NCBI GenBank assembly: GCA_964407865.1
Contig: CAYOXC010000002.1
Coordinates: 120,646 to 184,645 of the forward strand
DNA from: an uncultured Gammaproteobacteria bacterium
Lineage (GTDB): Bacteria; Patescibacteriota; Patescibacteriia; Magasanikbacterales; GWA2-37-8
Length of the DNA stretch: 64,000 bases
Reading direction: 5' to 3'
Part shown: one piece after another, positions 1 to 64,000 of the stretch
Numbering within the stretch: position 1 is the first letter of the stretch
Layout: every line of letters starts with the position of its first letter
Program-made: the position numbers and the translations under genes
Notes under the pieces: generated by a model
Told to the model about the DNA's origin: nothing
What the model saw: the letters and a program-made list of their open reading frames with translations, nothing else
Database searches by the model: none

Positions 1-45
1 GAATAAGAACAAAATCGCTCCTTGAAAAAAGAAAGGAGTATTACA

Positions 46-2118
46 ATGAAACAAGGAGGTCCGGTAATGGACAAAATTGAATTGGGAGGAAAGTCGAAAG
101 TTGATCTGTTGGTTCGATATTTGACGAATTTGCCGGGGCCGCTTACTTCCGAAGAGCTGCATCTGATGCGTGGGGCAATAGGTACGGAAGGATGCGCCAG
201 GCTTCATGTTGCGTCGCAAAATGCGGAGAACGTGGGGCGGACGACTGTTCGCTTTTCTTCGATCCCGGGTGATGTTGACGAAGTGTTTCCTAATATTCTT
301 GAAGATCGCGCGGAAGTAACAAGTATCGCAGGTTTTATATTGGGCATGAAGAAGAGCGGTGCTGACTGGGTAATTCTGGAGTCGTTTATTGAGGAGTACT
401 TCGCCAATGGCGGACAGGCAAATTCTCAACTAGTTGAGGATGACACGACCGACAATCAGACCGATGAGAACAGTGAAAAGGAAATCGAATTGAACCCTGA
501 AGATTGTGTTCCGGTGAAAGATGATAATGACGTTGAAACGAGAAAGGAAGTTGAAGAGGGGGTTGAAAAGTTGAACGAACTTTGTCTCGAACTAGAACAA
601 ATCAGATCAATTGTCGCTAGCCACGAACTGGAGTTGAAGCAAGTCAATGACAATCTCGGTTTTCTCACTGAAGCCAAAAAAAATGCGCTTTTTGCCAAAG
701 AAGAGCTAGGGCGCGAGGTTGACGAGCTTACGCATGAAATTATCGAAATCAGAAAGAGTTCTGCCGAACTAAAATCAGAAGTTGCCAAACGCAAAGAAGA
801 GGCGCACGACATTGAACTCGACGCCTTGAACACAGAGCAGGCAGCAGCTGAAAAAATGGCCGAATGCAAGGCTCGCCTTCAGGCAGCTGAGGAGTTGAAC
901 GCGCAAGCTGATCTCTTCCTTAACAAGGCCGAACAACTTGAGGCTGATGCGGCAGAGAAAATGCAGGAGGCTGAGGCGCGAATCGCGACTGCCACGACCG
1001 AGATGGCTGAATTAGAAGCTCACGAAAGAAAGCAGAGCAATGAATCGCTGGCGCTTGTTGCGAAAATGGACGAAATCGGCATTAGCCAGGAGCTTAGAGA
1101 AAAACTGAAGCCTGAAGTGGATGAGGCTGTTCGTTACCAGGCGGCAATTTACACGCTTTCACTGATCAAAGTGAGCGCTGAAAAATTGGCCGGACAAGTT
1201 CGTGACGAGGTGGTAGACCTAGCGGCTGAATGTCGTGTTCTCGGCGAAAGGCGAACCGGGCTCGATGAACAAATTGCCGAGCTATCATCGTCGTGTGATT
1301 CGTTGACAGAAAATGTGCGTGAACTCACGGATCTTCGCAGTAGCCTGAGCGAGGAGATATCTTCGCTTGAAAATGATATTGCTGAAATGGAAAAAAATTT
1401 GGATCAGGCTCGTCAGGAATCGCGGGCAATCAATTCAAATTATCACGATACTCTGGCCAAATACCGCGAAGCCATTGAGGATAAAAATCGGCAGATGGCT
1501 GAGGCTGAGGCTGATTTTCTACGACAGCAGGCAATTCAGCAAGATAAGATCAGCAAGTTTGAGCAAATGACAGCCAGTGTTATCTCCGAGGCGCAGACCA
1601 ATCTGCAAAAAGCCTCAAAAAGCTGTGCTGATCGAGTAGCGGAGCTTGAAGCGCAAGCAGTTAGGGCCAAAGAAAAGGCAGACAGTGAGTCTGCCAGGCT
1701 GAAGCTCATAATCACAGAAGCGGAGACGGCTTTAGACGAAATGCGAGTTAACGCCGAAAACCGCGTCAGAGAGACGCATAATAAGGCGGCTGCTCTAGTT
1801 AACGTGGTTCAAGAAGTTCAGGCGGAAAACCTCTCCAGCTTGCAGGCAAAATTGGAAGAGATGGAGCAGTTCGACAGATTTTTTGATATAGTGATGGTTT
1901 CACTCAAGGAAGCAAAATCCAAAGTTCAGCGTGTTTACGAAGAAAGCGAAGGCTTGAACAAAACCTACCAGTCACTATTTGCCATTCGGATGAAAGAAGC
2001 CGAAGAAATCGACGTTAAAATGAGCCAAGCGTTGGCATTGGTAGAGCAGATTTGCGCTGAACCAATTGTCCAAAAAGACGATGATGCGGCGAAAGAAGAT
2101 CTTAAAAATACCAAGTAA
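46..2118 (+). CDS. Large coiled-coil protein: N-terminal ~130-aa globular domain followed by a ~550-aa Ala/Glu/Lys/Leu-rich coiled coil. Hypothetical.
   Basis: The ORF track gives 22..2118 with a TTG start. In-frame ATGs at 46 and 67 are each preceded by a GGAG/AGGAGG Shine-Dalgarno sequence. The sequence is heptad-like and E/A/K-rich over most of its length. GC is visibly higher than in neighbouring genes. A terminator hairpin follows at 2136-2168. Confidence 0.55.
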   Translation: MKQGGPVMDKIELGGKSKVDLLVRYLTNLPGPLTSEELHLMRGAIGTEGCARLHVASQNAENVGRTTVRFSSIPGDVDEVFPNILEDRAEVTSIAGFILGMKKSGADWVILESFIEEYFANGGQANSQLVEDDTTDNQTDENSEKEIELNPEDCVPVKDDNDVETRKEVEEGVEKLNELCLELEQIRSIVASHELELKQVNDNLGFLTEAKKNALFAKEELGREVDELTHEIIEIRKSSAELKSEVAKRKEEAHDIELDALNTEQAAAEKMAECKARLQAAEELNAQADLFLNKAEQLEADAAEKMQEAEARIATATTEMAELEAHERKQSNESLALVAKMDEIGISQELREKLKPEVDEAVRYQAAIYTLSLIKVSAEKLAGQVRDEVVDLAAECRVLGERRTGLDEQIAELSSSCDSLTENVRELTDLRSSLSEEISSLENDIAEMEKNLDQARQESRAINSNYHDTLAKYREAIEDKNRQMAEAEADFLRQQAIQQDKISKFEQMTASVISEAQTNLQKASKSCADRVAELEAQAVRAKEKADSESARLKLIITEAETALDEMRVNAENRVRETHNKAAALVNVVQEVQAENLSSLQAKLEEMEQFDRFFDIVMVSLKEAKSKVQRVYEESEGLNKTYQSLFAIRMKEAEEIDVKMSQALALVEQICAEPIVQKDDDAAKEDLKNTK

Positions 2119-2135
2119 TACCCTACCTTTTTACA

Positions 2136-2168
2136 CCCCGGACACATCTATCCGGGGTTTATTTTTTT
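2136..2168 (+). terminator. Intrinsic terminator (ccccgga...tccgggg stem + T-run)
   Basis: Stem 2136-2142 / 2151-2157 followed by tttattttttt. Confidence 0.6.
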
Positions 2169-2181
2169 AAAAACAAAATGC

Positions 2182-2209
2182 TTGACATTATTCGCTTTAT
2201 TGCTATAAT
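2182..2209 (+). promoter_or_regulatory. Sigma70-like promoter (TTGACA-N16-TATAAT)
   Basis: TTGACA at 2182-2187 and TATAAT at 2204-2209, about 25 nt upstream of the ATG at 2232. Confidence 0.6.
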
Positions 2210-2231
2210 TCACCCTACAAAATAAAAAATT

Positions 2232-2771
2232 ATGAATAATGTCCAGTTAAAAAGATTATTAAATTTAGTCCGTAAAACCGGCGATCGGCTGGTTGTCGCA
2301 GACAAAGAAAGCGATGATGTTTTTGTTATAATGAATTTAGATGAATATGAAGATCTGTCTGATTTTAATGATGAAAACCATGATCATGATTTCGATGCAG
2401 TGCCGGATTTTTTAGAAGATGATAAAGCGGAAGAAATTGATGAAGAAATGCTCGAGCAAATTAATCAGAATATTTCCGAGTGGCGCGAAGAAAAAGATAA
2501 AGAAAAAATAACACAAATTACTGATGTGGCAGATGAAATAGTTGACAAACCGATTGTGGAAGATTTTTCCGATCAGAAAGAAGAGAATGTTCAATCAGGT
2601 TTTAAGAGTCGGAAGTCTTCAATACCGTCAGTTAGCGAGGTGTTGTCAGAGGAAAAATACCGCAATAGGCAGTTTAATGACAGTCCGCGTACAGGGTTTT
2701 TGGAGGAAGAGGATTTAAGCGATGTGTCCGAAGAAGAAGAGGAAAAATTTTATTTAGAACCAGTTGAATAA
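2232..2771 (+). CDS. Acidic protein with a Phd/YefM-antitoxin-like N-terminal segment and a long poly-acidic tail. Hypothetical.
   Basis: The N-terminus LKRLLNLVRKTGDRLVVADKESDDVFVIMNLDEYEDL resembles the YefM/Phd fold signature. The remaining ~130 aa are D/E-rich. No toxin-like partner ORF is adjacent. Confidence 0.45.
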   Translation: MNNVQLKRLLNLVRKTGDRLVVADKESDDVFVIMNLDEYEDLSDFNDENHDHDFDAVPDFLEDDKAEEIDEEMLEQINQNISEWREEKDKEKITQITDVADEIVDKPIVEDFSDQKEENVQSGFKSRKSSIPSVSEVLSEEKYRNRQFNDSPRTGFLEEEDLSDVSEEEEEKFYLEPVE

Positions 2772-2810
2772 AGCTTTTTTTCGTTTATATTGTCGTTATC
2801 GTGCCCTCTC

Positions 2811-2838
2811 TTGCAAAATTCTTATATTCTGCTATAAT
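2811..2838 (+). promoter_or_regulatory. Sigma70-like promoter upstream of tuf (TTGCAA-N16-TATAAT)
   Basis: TTGCAA at 2811-2816 and TATAAT at 2833-2838. Confidence 0.55.
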
Positions 2839-63123: not shown

Positions 63124-63213
63124 TTTGTTGGGAAAATGTGTTATGATATGCCGGTATTTTAAAATGTTTAATTAAGATTTCTAATTAAAAATTGGAAATT
63201 AAAAATTTTAAAC

Positions 63214-63285
63214 GGCCCCATCGTCTAATGGTTAGGACACCACGCTTTCAATGTGGTAATACGGGTTCGATTCCCGTTGGGGCTA
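63214..63285 (+). tRNA. tRNA-Glu (anticodon TTC). CCA is not encoded.
   Basis: Acceptor ggcccca/tggggct. Anticodon loop cuUUCaa. T-arm GGGTTCGATTCCCG. Confidence 0.8.
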
Positions 63286-63320
63286 CAAAAAGAAAAACTC
63301 CTGCGTAAGCAGGGTTTTTT
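63270..63320 (+). repeat. 51-nt direct repeat, copy 1 (tRNA-Glu 3' end + downstream hairpin/T-run)
   Basis: attcccgttggggctacaaaaagaaaaactcctgcgtaagcagggtttttt recurs at 63482-63532. Confidence 0.85.
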
Positions 63321-63481
63321 CTTTTTGTAATTCTGACCAGGGAATCGAACGGGCAGAAACGAGGCGCGAAGTTTTTGCGGAAGCAAAAACGAGCTGACGA
63401 GTGTCGCCGGACTGCCTGTGGCAGTCCGGCGCTGCCCTGGACACGAAGCCGAGCCGATTGCCGTCGGCGAGGCGACACGGA

Positions 63482-63532
63482 ATTCCCGTTGGGGCTACAA
63501 AAAGAAAAACTCCTGCGTAAGCAGGGTTTTTT
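63482..63532 (+). repeat. 51-nt direct repeat, copy 2
   Basis: Identical to 63270-63320. Separated from copy 1 by about 160 bp of GC-rich DNA (~60% GC). Confidence 0.85.
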
Positions 63533-63602
63533 TGTAGACGCGGTGTTGCCACATTGAGAAATATATGGATAAAAAATAACGGCAGAGATGCCGTTGTTTT
63601 AG

Positions 63603-63668
63603 TTTACCCTGTGTAATACCGTTCAACGGTAATTCAGTTAAGTTGTCGTGATTATTACACAGGGTAAA
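63603..63668. repeat. Perfect 16-bp inverted repeat tttaccctgtgtaata...tattacacagggtaaa with an inner palindrome accgttcaacggt
   Basis: Read directly. Flanked by further hairpins at 63578-63595 and 63681-63700. Confidence 0.7.
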
Positions 63669-63777
63669 TATAATATTGAACCTCGCATTGGTATGCGAGG
63701 TGGTTGCCCGGCCCTGCACAATGCGCAAGCGCCTGTGCGGGGTAAAGATGGGCAGGTGGGAAAGAACGTGGGTGGGA

Positions 63778-64000
63778 TCAGCGCTTGGTGCGCTTTCTCC
63801 AGCCGTTTGGGCTGAAGTTGCGGTTCGTGAGCAGCTCCTTGATGAGGAGCTGGGCCGAGCCGCCCCAGCCGCCCTGGGCGTTGTACCCCGCGACGACGTG
63901 GCGATACAAGTCGTCGTTGATGGGGGTCATGTACTCCATGCCCTCATCGCCGGGAATGTCGATTTCCTTTTCGAAAGAGATTCCATTTCGAAGCCCCTCG
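63778..64000 (-). CDS. Partial CDS (C-terminal ~73 aa; N-terminus beyond the window) in high-GC DNA. Hypothetical.
   Basis: The open minus-strand frame ...EIDIPGDEGMEYMTPINDDLYRHVVAGYNAQGGWGGSAQLLIKELLTNRNFSPNGWRKRTKR ends at TGA 63778-63780. GC is about 65%. It is absent from the ORF track because it is truncated. Confidence 0.4.
   Translation of the reverse strand, partial: EGLRNGISFEKEIDIPGDEGMEYMTPINDDLYRHVVAGYNAQGGWGGSAQLLIKELLTNRNFSPNGWRKRTKR

Follow-up and report, generated by a model that had tools for sequence, protein, structure and literature searches.

Five open reading frames in a 64,000-nucleotide chromosomal stretch (the window) of a Magasanikbacteria-like Patescibacterium, an AT-rich bacterium of the candidate phyla radiation, are richer in GC than any of the 55 background ORFs around them. 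We consider it probable that all five are real protein-coding genes, each transcribed independently, and that in at least three of them the GC excess is heritable, specific to the gene and actively maintained, with selection on the composition of the coding sequence or mRNA as the likeliest cause. These three genes, which encode a coiled-coil protein, a 133-aa protein and a divergent PRPP-synthetase-like (Prs-like) protein, are GC-rich in related genomes too and so, judged from sequence comparison, would at the least be old residents rather than recent imports.

Composition of the five genes

The window runs from the str, S10 and spc ribosomal operons to dnaE, tsaD and tRNA-Glu. An earlier note on this DNA had put the host background at about 37% GC by eye; the genome is indeed AT-rich, and the measured value for the window is 39.4% (0.394). 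The note's claim that five coding regions are GC-richer than the host holds in a quantitative GC and codon analysis, which places them outside the host distribution. Background ORFs (n=55) have a GC content of 0.388±0.027 (maximum 0.442) and a GC3 of 0.320±0.040 (maximum 0.422), and all five flagged ORFs exceed the maximum for GC and GC3 alike, with GC3 values of 0.48-0.71 (z 3.9-9.7). They are the 690-aa coiled-coil gene between fusA and tuf (46-2118, plus strand; GC 0.474, GC3 0.476, z 3.9), a 136-aa ORFan (32848-33258, plus strand; GC 0.462, GC3 0.489, z 4.3), the 133-aa gene between recG and radA (35582-35983, plus strand; GC 0.545, GC3 0.657, z 8.5), a 67-aa ORF (46122-46325, plus strand; GC 0.549, GC3 0.706, z 9.7) and the Prs-like gene (60801-61895, minus strand; GC 0.525, GC3 0.638, z 8.0).

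Amino-acid composition contributes only 2 to 4 GC points to the excess; the remainder is synonymous codon usage, with each codon family moved to C or G endings. This is opposite to the ribosomal and EF-Tu genes, which have the T/A-ending codon usage of the background. The excess ends at the borders of the coding sequences, within about 100 nt, and spills over neither into the nearest 40 codons of the genes on either side (GC3 0.23-0.42) nor into the intergenic flanks (GC 0.32-0.44). Promoter, Shine-Dalgarno and terminator signals were found for the four flagged genes with an upstream region that the window covers, and for these the earlier note was correct in assigning promoters and terminators of their own.

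Orthologues of three GC-rich genes in sister lineages

Syntenic orthologues are found in sister lineages for three genes: the Prs-like gene in L004 and L006, the 133-aa gene in L090 and the coiled-coil gene in L170. The Prs-like gene (364 aa) lies between tsaD and a gene for an NAD-dependent epimerase, and has a promoter (62000-61972), a terminator-like leader hairpin (61944-61918) and a terminator (60782-60757), all on the minus strand. Its protein shares with class I ribose-phosphate diphosphokinases (Prs) the DLH-x-Q, RSDKDE (counterpart of RQDRK) and DDE-x-ATG PRPP-loop motifs, and the family profile aligns with solved Prs structures in the PDB (E 1e-30) over about 300 residues. It differs from them in scoring below the cut-offs of Pfam (weak matches to Pribosyl_synth and Pribosyltran) and TIGRFAM (92.6 bits against TIGR01251; cut-off 113), in an extra N-terminal extension of about 55 residues, in a TGST rather than a TGGT loop, and in belonging to a separate clade centred on Patescibacteria, in which the family is widespread.

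The Prs-like gene is also syntenic in more distant lineages, and the tsaD-prs-dnaE neighbourhood is retained in lineages with just 51-53% TsaD identity. Its GC3 in L004 and L006 is 0.71-0.73, against about 0.55 for the flanks, and it exceeds that of the flanking ORFs at 38 of 44 distinct loci (mean +0.118, Wilcoxon p = 4e-9; RecG, as a control in the same test, +0.022), the other six showing no GC3 excess. Any two of the window, L004 and L006 share 62-63% protein identity for this gene, and the flanks are roughly equidistant, at 71-81% amino-acid identity, a pattern that fits vertical descent. In the phylogeny suggested by the earlier note, here a neighbour-joining tree of the family, members from low-GC hosts lie deep and are not nested in the clade of GC-rich hosts.

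The comparisons for the other two genes rest on one or two known relatives. The 133-aa gene has a promoter at 35479-35507 and a terminator hairpin at 36013-36050; the database gene call is a 161-aa form that starts at GTG 35498 (P0121) and is recorded on three contigs. Its one homologue, at the same recG-radA position in L090, is 53% identical without gaps, against 83% for radA, and has a GC3 of 0.74-0.76 against 0.46-0.56 in its flanks. Mismatches between the two genes number 41/43/69 by codon position, with conservation of the terminator hairpin GCCGCCCAAGACAAYTGTCARGGGCGGC. Glu and Ala are abundant in the coiled-coil protein, which has a non-coiled N-terminal domain and matches no Pfam family, giving weak coiled-coil matches only; among 1.84 billion representatives it has only two real homologues, 43% and 37% identical over the full length. 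The order fusA - cc - o2232 - tuf occurs both in L170 and in Logan contigs of the window organism, and the 5' leader hairpin is conserved. In L170 the elevation is marginal (GC3 0.53 against 0.50 for EF-G), and on the short contig L169, from a run shared with L090, the gene has a GC3 of 0.65.

Evolution is faster in all three genes than in the genes that flank them. Where the residue is conserved, fourfold sites are identical at a rate of 0.32-0.47, and independent sequences would be expected to give 0.23-0.32; synonymous divergence is thus near, though not at, full saturation. The earlier note had suggested that host regulatory signals were added on domestication; the promoters and leader hairpins are conserved together with the genes and therefore are not later additions.

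Small ORFs and the tRNA-Arg site

ORF 32848-33258 lies between tRNA-Arg(gcg) (32602-32676) and recG and is equipped with a promoter of its own at 32749-32777, with a Shine-Dalgarno sequence and, at 33287-33306, with a terminator. Its protein matches nothing but itself among 5.8 billion proteins and has no match in Pfam, PHROG, PADLOC or NCBIfam, and its AlphaFold model (pLDDT 36) is unusable. The ORF was not found at the recG loci of about 80 relatives, and in L043 a different gene occupies the site. Between the tRNA-Arg terminator and the ORF promoter, and close to both, part of the tRNA 3' end is repeated in inverted orientation (32714-32735, plus strand; 86% complementary over 22 nt), an arrangement also present in L043, L018, L025 and L053 that co-varies with the T-arm of each tRNA. 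In the relative L013, an element of 52-69% GC encoding a large serine recombinase and a Replic_Relax protein abuts the same tRNA-Arg.

The highly charged 67-aa product of ORF 46122-46325 is preceded by a near-consensus promoter (46034-46062; 11 of 12 positions plus a TG extension) and followed by a terminator (46358-46380). Signs of coding are the GC pattern by codon position and the Shine-Dalgarno sequence GAGGAGG. Its exact sequence is absent from the protein collection, and it has no relative in IMG/VR. Since the 136-aa and 67-aa ORFs have no detected relatives, both may be true acquisitions. A search of phage, plasmid and IMG/VR sequences with the flagged ORFs queried, a set without the coiled-coil gene, returned no relatives.

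Terminal ORF and GC-rich segments beside tRNA genes

The terminal 300 bp are GC-rich, as the earlier note had it, and hold the end of a minus-strand ORF: its last 73 codons (63778-64000, stop at 63778; GC about 0.60, GC3 0.93) make up the final 220 bp and run off the window. The note's further statement that several of the GC-rich regions sit next to tRNAs applies to 32848-33258 and this terminal region only, and not to the others. The terminal ORF sits about 250 bp past the tRNA-Glu repeat structure and has no match among phage, plasmid and IMG/VR sequences. It may be a true acquisition; because all three Logan contigs of the region end at tRNA-Glu (window 63190-63299), the join to it is without independent confirmation.

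Two more GC-rich segments, beyond those listed in the earlier note, lie at 21057-21212 after tRNA-Leu and at 63321-63481 after tRNA-Glu. They are a phenomenon apart from the GC-rich genes, being structured and edged by copies of tRNA 3' ends. By repeat analysis and folding, the first is a non-coding plus-strand unit that follows tRNA-Leu (20935-21019) and the terminator of that gene. Its first stretch (21057-21079) repeats the 3' part of the tRNA in inverted orientation, and its last (21195-21210) repeats the tRNA 3' end in direct orientation; the palindrome CCTGCCTGCCGGTAGGCAGG lies between them at 21139-21158. Positions 21080-21344 were recovered in two independent Logan assemblies, and the unit matches no Rfam family. 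The second, also on the plus strand, follows tRNA-Glu (63214-63286). The 51 nt behind it (63482-63532) repeat the tRNA 3' end and terminator (63270-63320) without a mismatch, and unit and repeat together span 63321-63532. In an 85%-identical copy in L004 (BLAST match L004 4123-4258), compensatory changes affect six of the 47 predicted pairs, four of them inside the three long hairpins; two such units stand there in tandem, a terminator-like hairpin after each, without an intact tRNA-Glu.

These inserts resemble the products of integrase insertion into tRNA 3' ends (attL/attR) in the direct repeats that bracket them (51 nt and perfect at tRNA-Glu, 16 nt at tRNA-Leu), and the serine-recombinase element at tRNA-Arg in L013 is a further likeness. 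They differ in being just 160-175 nt long and gene-free, in starting with an inverted tRNA 3' copy at a fixed distance (+43 to +49), in their compensatory base-pair changes between lineages, and in their tandem occurrence without an intact tRNA in L004.

Discussion

That the GC excess is an artefact of chimeric assembly, contaminating GC-rich reads, amino-acid composition or high-expression codon bias is scarcely credible. tRNA genes are classic sites of chimeric joins and the last roughly 700 bp, past tRNA-Glu, lie outside all three Logan contigs; the Glu/Ala-richness of the coiled-coil protein also points this way. However, independent Logan assemblies of three runs (SRR14492171-3; two assemblies for ORF 32848) show identical surroundings for the Prs-like gene, ORF 32848 and the coiled-coil gene, so that these joins are not chimeric. 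With the three contigs carrying the 161-aa form, the small amino-acid share, and a codon preference that ribosomal and EF-Tu genes lack, we reject an artefact for the five genes. Recent, independent acquisition of all five from GC-richer donors (an organism, a phage or an integrative element), with host promoters fitted later, is unlikely. In its favour, strong deviation in GC3 and codon usage is typical of foreign genes; ORF 32848, an ORFan, occupies a variable site that adjoins tRNA-Arg and a tRNA-fragment scar; L013 has its recombinase-bearing element at the same tRNA-Arg; and the recG-radA junction holds differing, often GC-elevated small ORFs in various relatives. Indeed, a higher-GC foreign gene pool is real, since GC3 surpasses that of the core genes by over 0.10 in 25% of the accessory ORFs of AT-rich relatives but in just 1% of core ORFs. 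Nonetheless, the distances among sister-lineage orthologues are congruent and star-like, the GC excess of the Prs-like gene is family-wide, and four of the five genes have no integrase, direct repeats or adjacent tRNA; the ORFs queried have no phage, plasmid or IMG/VR relatives. We reject recent acquisition for the three genes whose orthologues, promoters and leaders included, are already at the same sites in sister lineages. The multiple independent acquisitions, or shared donor, of the earlier note are contradicted for these three; acquisition may apply to ORF 32848, ORF 46122 and the terminal ORF.

Synteny would be kept and composition would stay foreign if resident copies had been repeatedly overwritten by GC-rich homologues from a mobile pool. 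Such xenologous replacement, which we regard as highly unlikely, would account for the greater divergence of the genes than of their flanks, for their sharp, cassette-like boundaries and for the better fit of the Prs-like protein to a phage Prs family (phrog_619, 1e-19) than to Pfam models; but the equal Prs-like distances are those expected of one faster clock, not of replacement in some lineages only, conservation extends from the genes to their promoters, leaders and terminators, and the family is absent from IMG/VR and has low-GC-host members outside the GC-rich clade. Decidedly unlikely, too, is GC-biased gene conversion at local recombination hot spots, in which fast-evolving genes would often be exchanged between strains and biased heteroduplex repair would lift their GC3 in every lineage. 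It ties faster protein evolution to higher GC3 in all lineages, and recombining genes of many bacteria reportedly have higher GC3, a finding attributed to Lassalle et al. 2015. As there, GC3 here differs between vertically inherited genes in a way unexplained by expression-linked codon bias; the differences are, however, far larger (delta GC3 0.16-0.39) and are confined to single coding sequences, an absence of spill-over that is unexpected for conversion tracts.

Compositionally atypical genes and genomic islands are said, in the framework of Lawrence and Ochman, to be horizontal acquisitions that ameliorate over time. Likewise, the genes described here deviate sharply from the host in GC, GC3 and codon usage, one ORF and the terminal region adjoin tRNA genes with duplicated 3' ends, and at one of these tRNAs a relative carries a GC-rich element that encodes a recombinase. 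They depart from that framework in that three of the five are unameliorated despite vertical inheritance over near-saturated synonymous divergence, and four lack mobility genes, repeats and an adjacent tRNA. Moreover, where accessory genes and ORFans as a rule have more AT than the host, the deviation here is towards GC.

We favour active maintenance of the GC excess by selection. The coiled-coil, 133-aa and Prs-like genes would already have been in place in the common ancestor with sister lineages of 47-49% GC, and at the protein level they evolve faster than their neighbours; in those relatives, too, they are the GC-richest genes of their own neighbourhoods. With synonymous sites near saturation and neighbouring genes apparently relaxed to a GC3 of about 0.32, the excess would be maintained gene by gene rather than left over from import. 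The preference for G/C-ending codons seems restricted to the flagged coding sequences, far above the rest of the genome; because the excess stops at their borders and departs from ribosomal codon preference, the likeliest force is selection that acts on composition in just these coding sequences or mRNAs; optimisation of translation would fit less well, as would mutation or conversion acting on the region. A synonymous-shuffle test detected no mRNA structure beyond that given by composition (z -1.65 to +0.2, like controls). We propose, as one example, that such selection may favour monocistronic messages that resist RNase, are long-lived and carry hairpins at both the 5' and the 3' end.

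Composition of the flagged genes

The window has a GC content of 39.4% over its 64 kb and carries genes for EF-Tu and the S10-spc ribosomal operon, followed by parA, recG, radA, pheT, dnaE, fpg, tsaD and a gene for an NAD-dependent epimerase. These labels come from Pfam/NCBIfam matches, which for the ribosomal operon cover part of its genes, and from precomputed Pfam annotations for the same genes in Logan contigs, which are independent assemblies of sequencing runs from the same organism. The window's gene orders recur in those assemblies (SRR14492171, -72 and -73). Among GTDB species representatives, the best matches to RecG are MAGs of Magasanikbacteria, Parcubacteria and Patescibacteria, none above 62% identity, indicating that the source is an undescribed Patescibacterium.

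The earlier note had singled out five ORFs as more GC-rich than their host, namely a 690-aa coiled-coil gene (46-2118), ORFs of 136 aa (32848-33258), 133 aa (35582-35983) and 67 aa (46122-46325), and a 364-aa Prs-like gene (60801-61895, minus strand). This observation is real and quantitatively strong. The other 55 of the 60 non-overlapping ORFs in the window, which served as background, have a GC content of 0.388±0.027 (maximum 0.442) and a GC3 of 0.320±0.040 (maximum 0.422). All five flagged ORFs exceed both maxima, with GC contents of 0.46-0.55 and, in order of position, GC3 values of 0.476, 0.489, 0.657, 0.706 and 0.638 (z 3.9-9.7), and hence do not fall within the host distribution. Background codon frequencies applied to their own amino acids predict a GC content of only 0.40-0.44, so the bulk of the excess is synonymous; codon usage is moved toward C/G across all codon families. 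The dinucleotide signature is not decisive, since the values for the coiled-coil and Prs-like genes, although in the high tail of the background, remain inside its range. The end of the window is likewise as GC-rich as had been described: its last 220 bases belong to a minus-strand ORF (63778-64000, the last 73 codons of a gene that runs past the edge) with a GC3 of 0.93. Promoter-like sites, Shine-Dalgarno sequences and terminators border the flagged genes, again in agreement with the note. The codon-position pattern of GC and a gapless protein alignment show that the GC-rich regions are coding. We considered conserved antisense ORFs and rejected them, because an open antisense frame is expected from GC-rich codon usage alone and the frames are not kept in L090, a locus from a relative.

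A divergent PRPP-synthetase homologue is GC-rich across lineages

Judged by its sequence, the ORF at 60801-61895 is a divergent PRPP-synthetase homologue. Its scores fall below the cut-offs of the Pfam families PF14572 (25.8 bits; cut-off 27) and PF00156 (22.7; cut-off 26.3) and of TIGR01251 (92.6 bits; cut-off 113); a profile of its own family matches PDB Prs chains with an E-value of 8e-31 over about 300 residues. The protein contains DLHSPQ, RSDKDE and DDEMATGST, in columns that are invariant or nearly so in a 28-sequence alignment, and these are candidate counterparts of the Prs motifs DLH.Q, R.D(R/K) and DD...TGGT, with an apparent G-to-S change in the loop. Members of the family occur widely among Patescibacteria. 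In the 5' leader of the gene (61944-61918, minus strand), a terminator-like hairpin, ACGGGC...GCCCGT followed by a T-run, lies between the promoter and the Shine-Dalgarno sequence; it has no Rfam family match and is a possible attenuator.

Two sister genomes, L004 (GCA_028688375.1) and L006, share the order epimerase, Prs-like gene, tsaD, fpg, dnaE; they have a genomic GC content of about 47-48%, and in them the GC3 of the Prs-like gene is 0.71-0.73 versus about 0.55 for its flanks. The three lineages are about equidistant: pairwise protein identity is 71-81% for the flanking genes and 62-63% for the Prs-like protein in every pair, as predicted by a single faster clock acting on a vertically inherited gene. 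The tsaD-prs-dnaE neighbourhood is kept even in lineages whose TsaD proteins are only 51-53% identical. In a metagenome scan, the GC3 of the Prs-like gene was higher than that of the flanking ORFs in 38 of 44 distinct loci (mean difference +0.118; Wilcoxon p = 4e-9), and in most of the 44 it was the highest of the locus; the same procedure applied to RecG as a control gave a difference of +0.022 over 77 loci, with RecG ranked top in 7. The earlier note had proposed a phylogeny of this gene as a check on its acquisition. In a crude neighbour-joining tree, family members from low-GC hosts branch deeply and fall outside the clade from GC-rich hosts; neither this tree nor the pairwise identities with the flanks reveal incongruence.

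Residents and possible imports among the other GC-rich ORFs

The coiled-coil protein has an N-terminal domain of about 130 residues followed by a long coiled coil, and matches no domain family. When 1.84 billion representatives were searched exhaustively with HMMER, no more than two true homologues emerged, 43% and 37% identical over their full length. One of them lies in a relative, L170, where the gene order is fusA, coiled-coil homologue, homologue of o2232, tuf; in the Logan contigs of the window's own organism it is rpsL, rpsG, fusA, a 59-aa ORF, the coiled-coil gene, o2232, tuf, rpsJ. This shared position between fusA and tuf identifies the coiled-coil gene as a clade-specific resident of the str region, and its promoter and 5' leader hairpin are conserved. 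The str operon region (window 46-2771; Logan contig L171 3519-11169) is interrupted by an insertion between fusA and tuf, consisting of the 59-aa ORF in antisense orientation, the coiled-coil gene and a gene for a 179-aa acidic protein with a weak Phd/YefM-like match; the insertion is also present in L170.

The 133-aa protein has one detectable homologue, 53% identical without gaps, at the same site between recG and radA in L090, where radA is 83% identical to that of the window. Mismatches between the two genes number 41, 43 and 69 at the three codon positions, which, with the conserved blocks, marks a real, fast-evolving protein. In L090 its GC3 is 0.74-0.76 versus 0.46-0.56 for its neighbours. 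Among relatives (L007-L048), the site equivalent to window positions 35472-36071 is empty in some (9-85 bp), whereas in others it is occupied by unrelated small ORFs, several of them GC-elevated (L043/L019, L007, L013 and L008/L011). The junction between tRNA-Arg and recG is also variable, again with unrelated and often GC-elevated small ORFs. ORF 32848-33258, at this junction, has no relatives among 5.8 billion proteins and is absent from the recG loci of about 80 relatives; its structure prediction is unusable (pLDDT 36). The 67-aa ORF, at a site between pgm and an M48-peptidase gene, has no match in IMG/VR or the family libraries. Exact protein look-up of the 133-aa and 67-aa ORFs gave no match, gene callers having used other starts or made no call.

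The earlier note had explained the GC-rich genes by multiple acquisitions or a shared donor. For the Prs-like, 133-aa and coiled-coil genes this explanation fails, since they are syntenic in sister lineages (L004, L006 and farther loci; L090; and L170, respectively) and not absent from the site, as ORF 32848 is among its relatives; it is right for a minority of items at most. No integrase was matched among the subset of window ORFs scanned, and none of four flagged genes (the coiled-coil, 133-aa and Prs-like genes and ORF 46122) has a mobility hallmark (integrase, direct repeats or tRNA) beside it. ORF 32848 adjoins tRNA-Arg and its inverted tRNA fragment, and the terminal ORF is preceded by tRNA-Glu with a 51-nt direct repeat. 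Searches for related sequences yielded five empty IMG/VR scans and, from PHROG and PADLOC, a single match, phrog_619, to the Prs-like gene; tblastn found nothing in phages for the 133-aa, 136-aa and terminal ORFs and nothing in plasmids for the terminal ORF. On this basis we rejected, for the ORFs queried, an origin from phages, plasmids or defence systems.

Core GC3 is exceeded by more than 0.10 in 25% of the accessory ORFs of AT-rich relatives, versus 1% of core ORFs. One relative with a core of about 40% GC (L013 1-5931; Magasanikiibacteriota MAG_292) has 6 kb of DNA of 52-69% GC adjoining tRNA-Arg(gcg) beside recG, with genes for a large serine recombinase and a Replic_Relax protein; it represents an integrative element or else a chimeric join. 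Taken together, the variable junctions, the GC-elevated accessory ORFs and the L013 element suggest a possible foreign origin for ORF 32848, ORF 46122 and the terminal ORF. The last of these may alternatively reflect a chimeric join, given that all three Logan contigs covering this region end at tRNA-Glu.

GC-rich structured units downstream of tRNA genes

The window contains five tRNA genes (Leu, Val, Arg(gcg), Met and Glu), the only Rfam families matched in its GC-rich regions, whether at the gathering threshold or at E-values up to 1. The tRNA-Arg (32602-32676) has a GCG anticodon, as it does in many loci of Patescibacteria (L013, L016, L018, L025, L027, L030, L043, L053, L073 and L086); CGY codons in bacteria are normally read by an ACG (inosine) tRNA. 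The Leu, Arg and Glu genes (regions 20935-21212, 32602-32735 and 63214-63532) are each followed by a terminator and then by a stretch that repeats the tRNA's 3' part in inverted orientation. In the Leu and Glu regions a GC-rich insert of 160-175 nt follows, closing with the 3' end of the tRNA in direct copy: 21002-21017 matches 21195-21210 at 15 of 16 positions, and 63270-63320 is identical to 63482-63532 over 51 nt, terminator included. Similar architecture occurs in relatives (L004 3935-4281; L018, L025, L053, L043, L055 and L066), often with inserts of 60-200 nt, and tandem units occur in L004 and L053. The two in L004 are each followed by a terminator-like hairpin, with no intact tRNA-Glu nearby.

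Among 127 distinct tRNAs in relatives' loci, an inverted copy (at least 12 of 16 positions matching) lies downstream of 13, mostly at +43 to +49, and upstream of none. A direct copy of the 3' end lies within 400 nt downstream of 18 (at +34 to +198), in 11 cases with no other tRNA gene intervening. For tRNA-Arg, differences in the T-arm between lineages are matched by differences in the inverted copy. The Glu unit and its L004 counterpart share 85% identity, with compensatory changes in six of 47 predicted pairs, four of these inside three long hairpins. The motif GGAATCGAA-N-GCCGGAGC is common to tRNA-Arg units (L018, L025 and L053) and tRNA-Glu units (L004 and L151); GCGAGGCGGGGTCGAG is common to the tRNA-Arg units and, with two mismatches, is also present between a pair of tRNA-Ser genes in L018. 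The motif GGAATCGAANGCCGGAGC was discarded in IMG/VR, all six matches being chance occurrences inside GC-rich coding sequence.

Direct repeats of the tRNA 3' end bracket the inserts as attL and attR bracket an integrative element at a tRNA site; such an element is expected to carry an integrase and cargo, however, whereas the Leu and Glu inserts (161-175 nt) have no integrase, cargo or plausible ORF between the repeats. Group I introns of Patescibacteria tRNA genes sit in the anticodon loop (35/36; PMC13011429), whereas the inserts here lie downstream of complete tRNAs and their terminators, and the window has no Intron_gpI match at E-values up to 1; we rejected this identity. No Rfam family matches the units. 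The inverted and direct 3' copies, the compensatory changes and the tandem copies point to a possible new RNA or miniature-element family: the units may be structured RNAs that mimic tRNA 3' ends, or miniature integrative elements devoid of genes. Independent short-read assemblies of this organism stop exactly at the tRNA-Leu unit (about 21080) and at tRNA-Glu (63190-63299), consistent with repeated tRNA 3' ends acting as graph repeats or with sites of strain variation.

The Leu unit also holds a 20-nt palindrome, CCTGCCTGCCGG(C/T)AGGCAGG (21139-21158), reproduced in two independent assemblies and conceivably a very small mobile element. Across 1.7 Mb of loci there are eight recurrences, in unrelated contexts (among them L055 3650, L068 4889, L073 5771, L086 4564, L039 and L056); several copies lie inside the D-loop of tRNA or tRNA-like sequences, or in or near their variable loop, and short direct repeats border some copies. 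The palindrome is also found in 47 IMG/VR stretches (L179-L225) of 33-70% GC, where a technical origin is possible.

Discussion

The main pattern is that a few resident, fast-evolving genes stay persistently GC-rich within the bounds of their CDSs, which is unusual, though a variant of known within-genome compositional heterogeneity. At fourfold sites of conserved residues, third-base identity between window and relatives is 0.32-0.47, against 0.23-0.32 expected under independence, suggesting that synonymous sites have largely turned over. By the standard amelioration argument, a one-off import before the lineages split would have ameliorated as its neighbours did; GC3 is now about 0.32-0.35 in neighbours, 0.64 in the Prs-like gene and 0.66 in the 133-aa gene. 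We infer that the excess must be maintained.

Several processes could in principle maintain it. Translational selection is unlikely, because ribosomal-protein and EF-Tu genes favour T/A-ending codons at least as much as the background does, opposite to the GC-rich genes (ATT 0.73, TTT 0.89 and TAT 0.79 in ribosomal genes; ATC 0.57, TTC 0.62 and TAC 0.75 in GC-rich genes). A regional process, such as biased gene conversion along a recombination tract, is not favoured given that GC does not spill over: the nearest 40 codons (first or last) of adjacent genes, 60-150 nt away, have a background-level GC3 of 0.23-0.42, and flanking intergenic DNA has a GC content of 0.32-0.44. Repeated replacement of resident copies from a mobile pool is not favoured either: pairwise distances are equal, regulatory regions are conserved and IMG/VR lacks the Prs-like family. 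We rejected selected mRNA structure, since synonymous-codon shuffles gave z-scores of -1.65 to +0.2, as in controls. By elimination, we infer that selection on the composition of these coding sequences or their messages is the most likely mechanism; it might act, for example, for message longevity in slow-growing cells. Each of the maintained genes is a monocistronic unit with a 5' hairpin, lying between a strong promoter and a strong terminator. Patescibacteria may keep a few fast-evolving monocistronic genes (the Prs-like gene, the recG-radA gene and the fusA-tuf coiled-coil gene) GC-rich at synonymous sites for very long periods, independently of genome drift, such that GC-richness may be a "composition phenotype" of the coding sequence, not a trace of transfer. 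Other small genes in the 47-48% GC sisters are also very high in GC3 (L004 6920-7201 and L006 94-393: an HU gene, 0.72, and a 99-aa ORF, 0.84), and the set may therefore exceed the three genes traced. That both parts hold together, a selection-kept set of GC-rich genes and a new family of tRNA-3'-end-mimicking RNAs or gene-less miniature elements, we consider a rather doubtful joint reading. The tRNA-linked units may represent a new class of small RNA or mobile element, and they probably cause short-read assemblies to break at tRNA genes.

Atypical GC content and codon usage are routinely taken as signs of horizontal transfer, including in surveys of Patescibacteria. Genome surveys of the group rely on composition-based island predictors (PMC12455944 among them), and one assumes that ancient transfers go undetected because GC content and tetranucleotide frequencies adjust to the recipient (PMC12455944). 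In this 64-kb stretch the strongest outliers are, for the most part, long-established residents, and their GC-richness passes down with the gene, across dozens of lineages in the case of the Prs-like family. Composition-based transfer calls in these genomes will therefore include systematic false positives. Selection on codon usage is commonly presumed to be weak in Patescibacteria; our result points to an unexplained force acting on the synonymous sites of particular genes.
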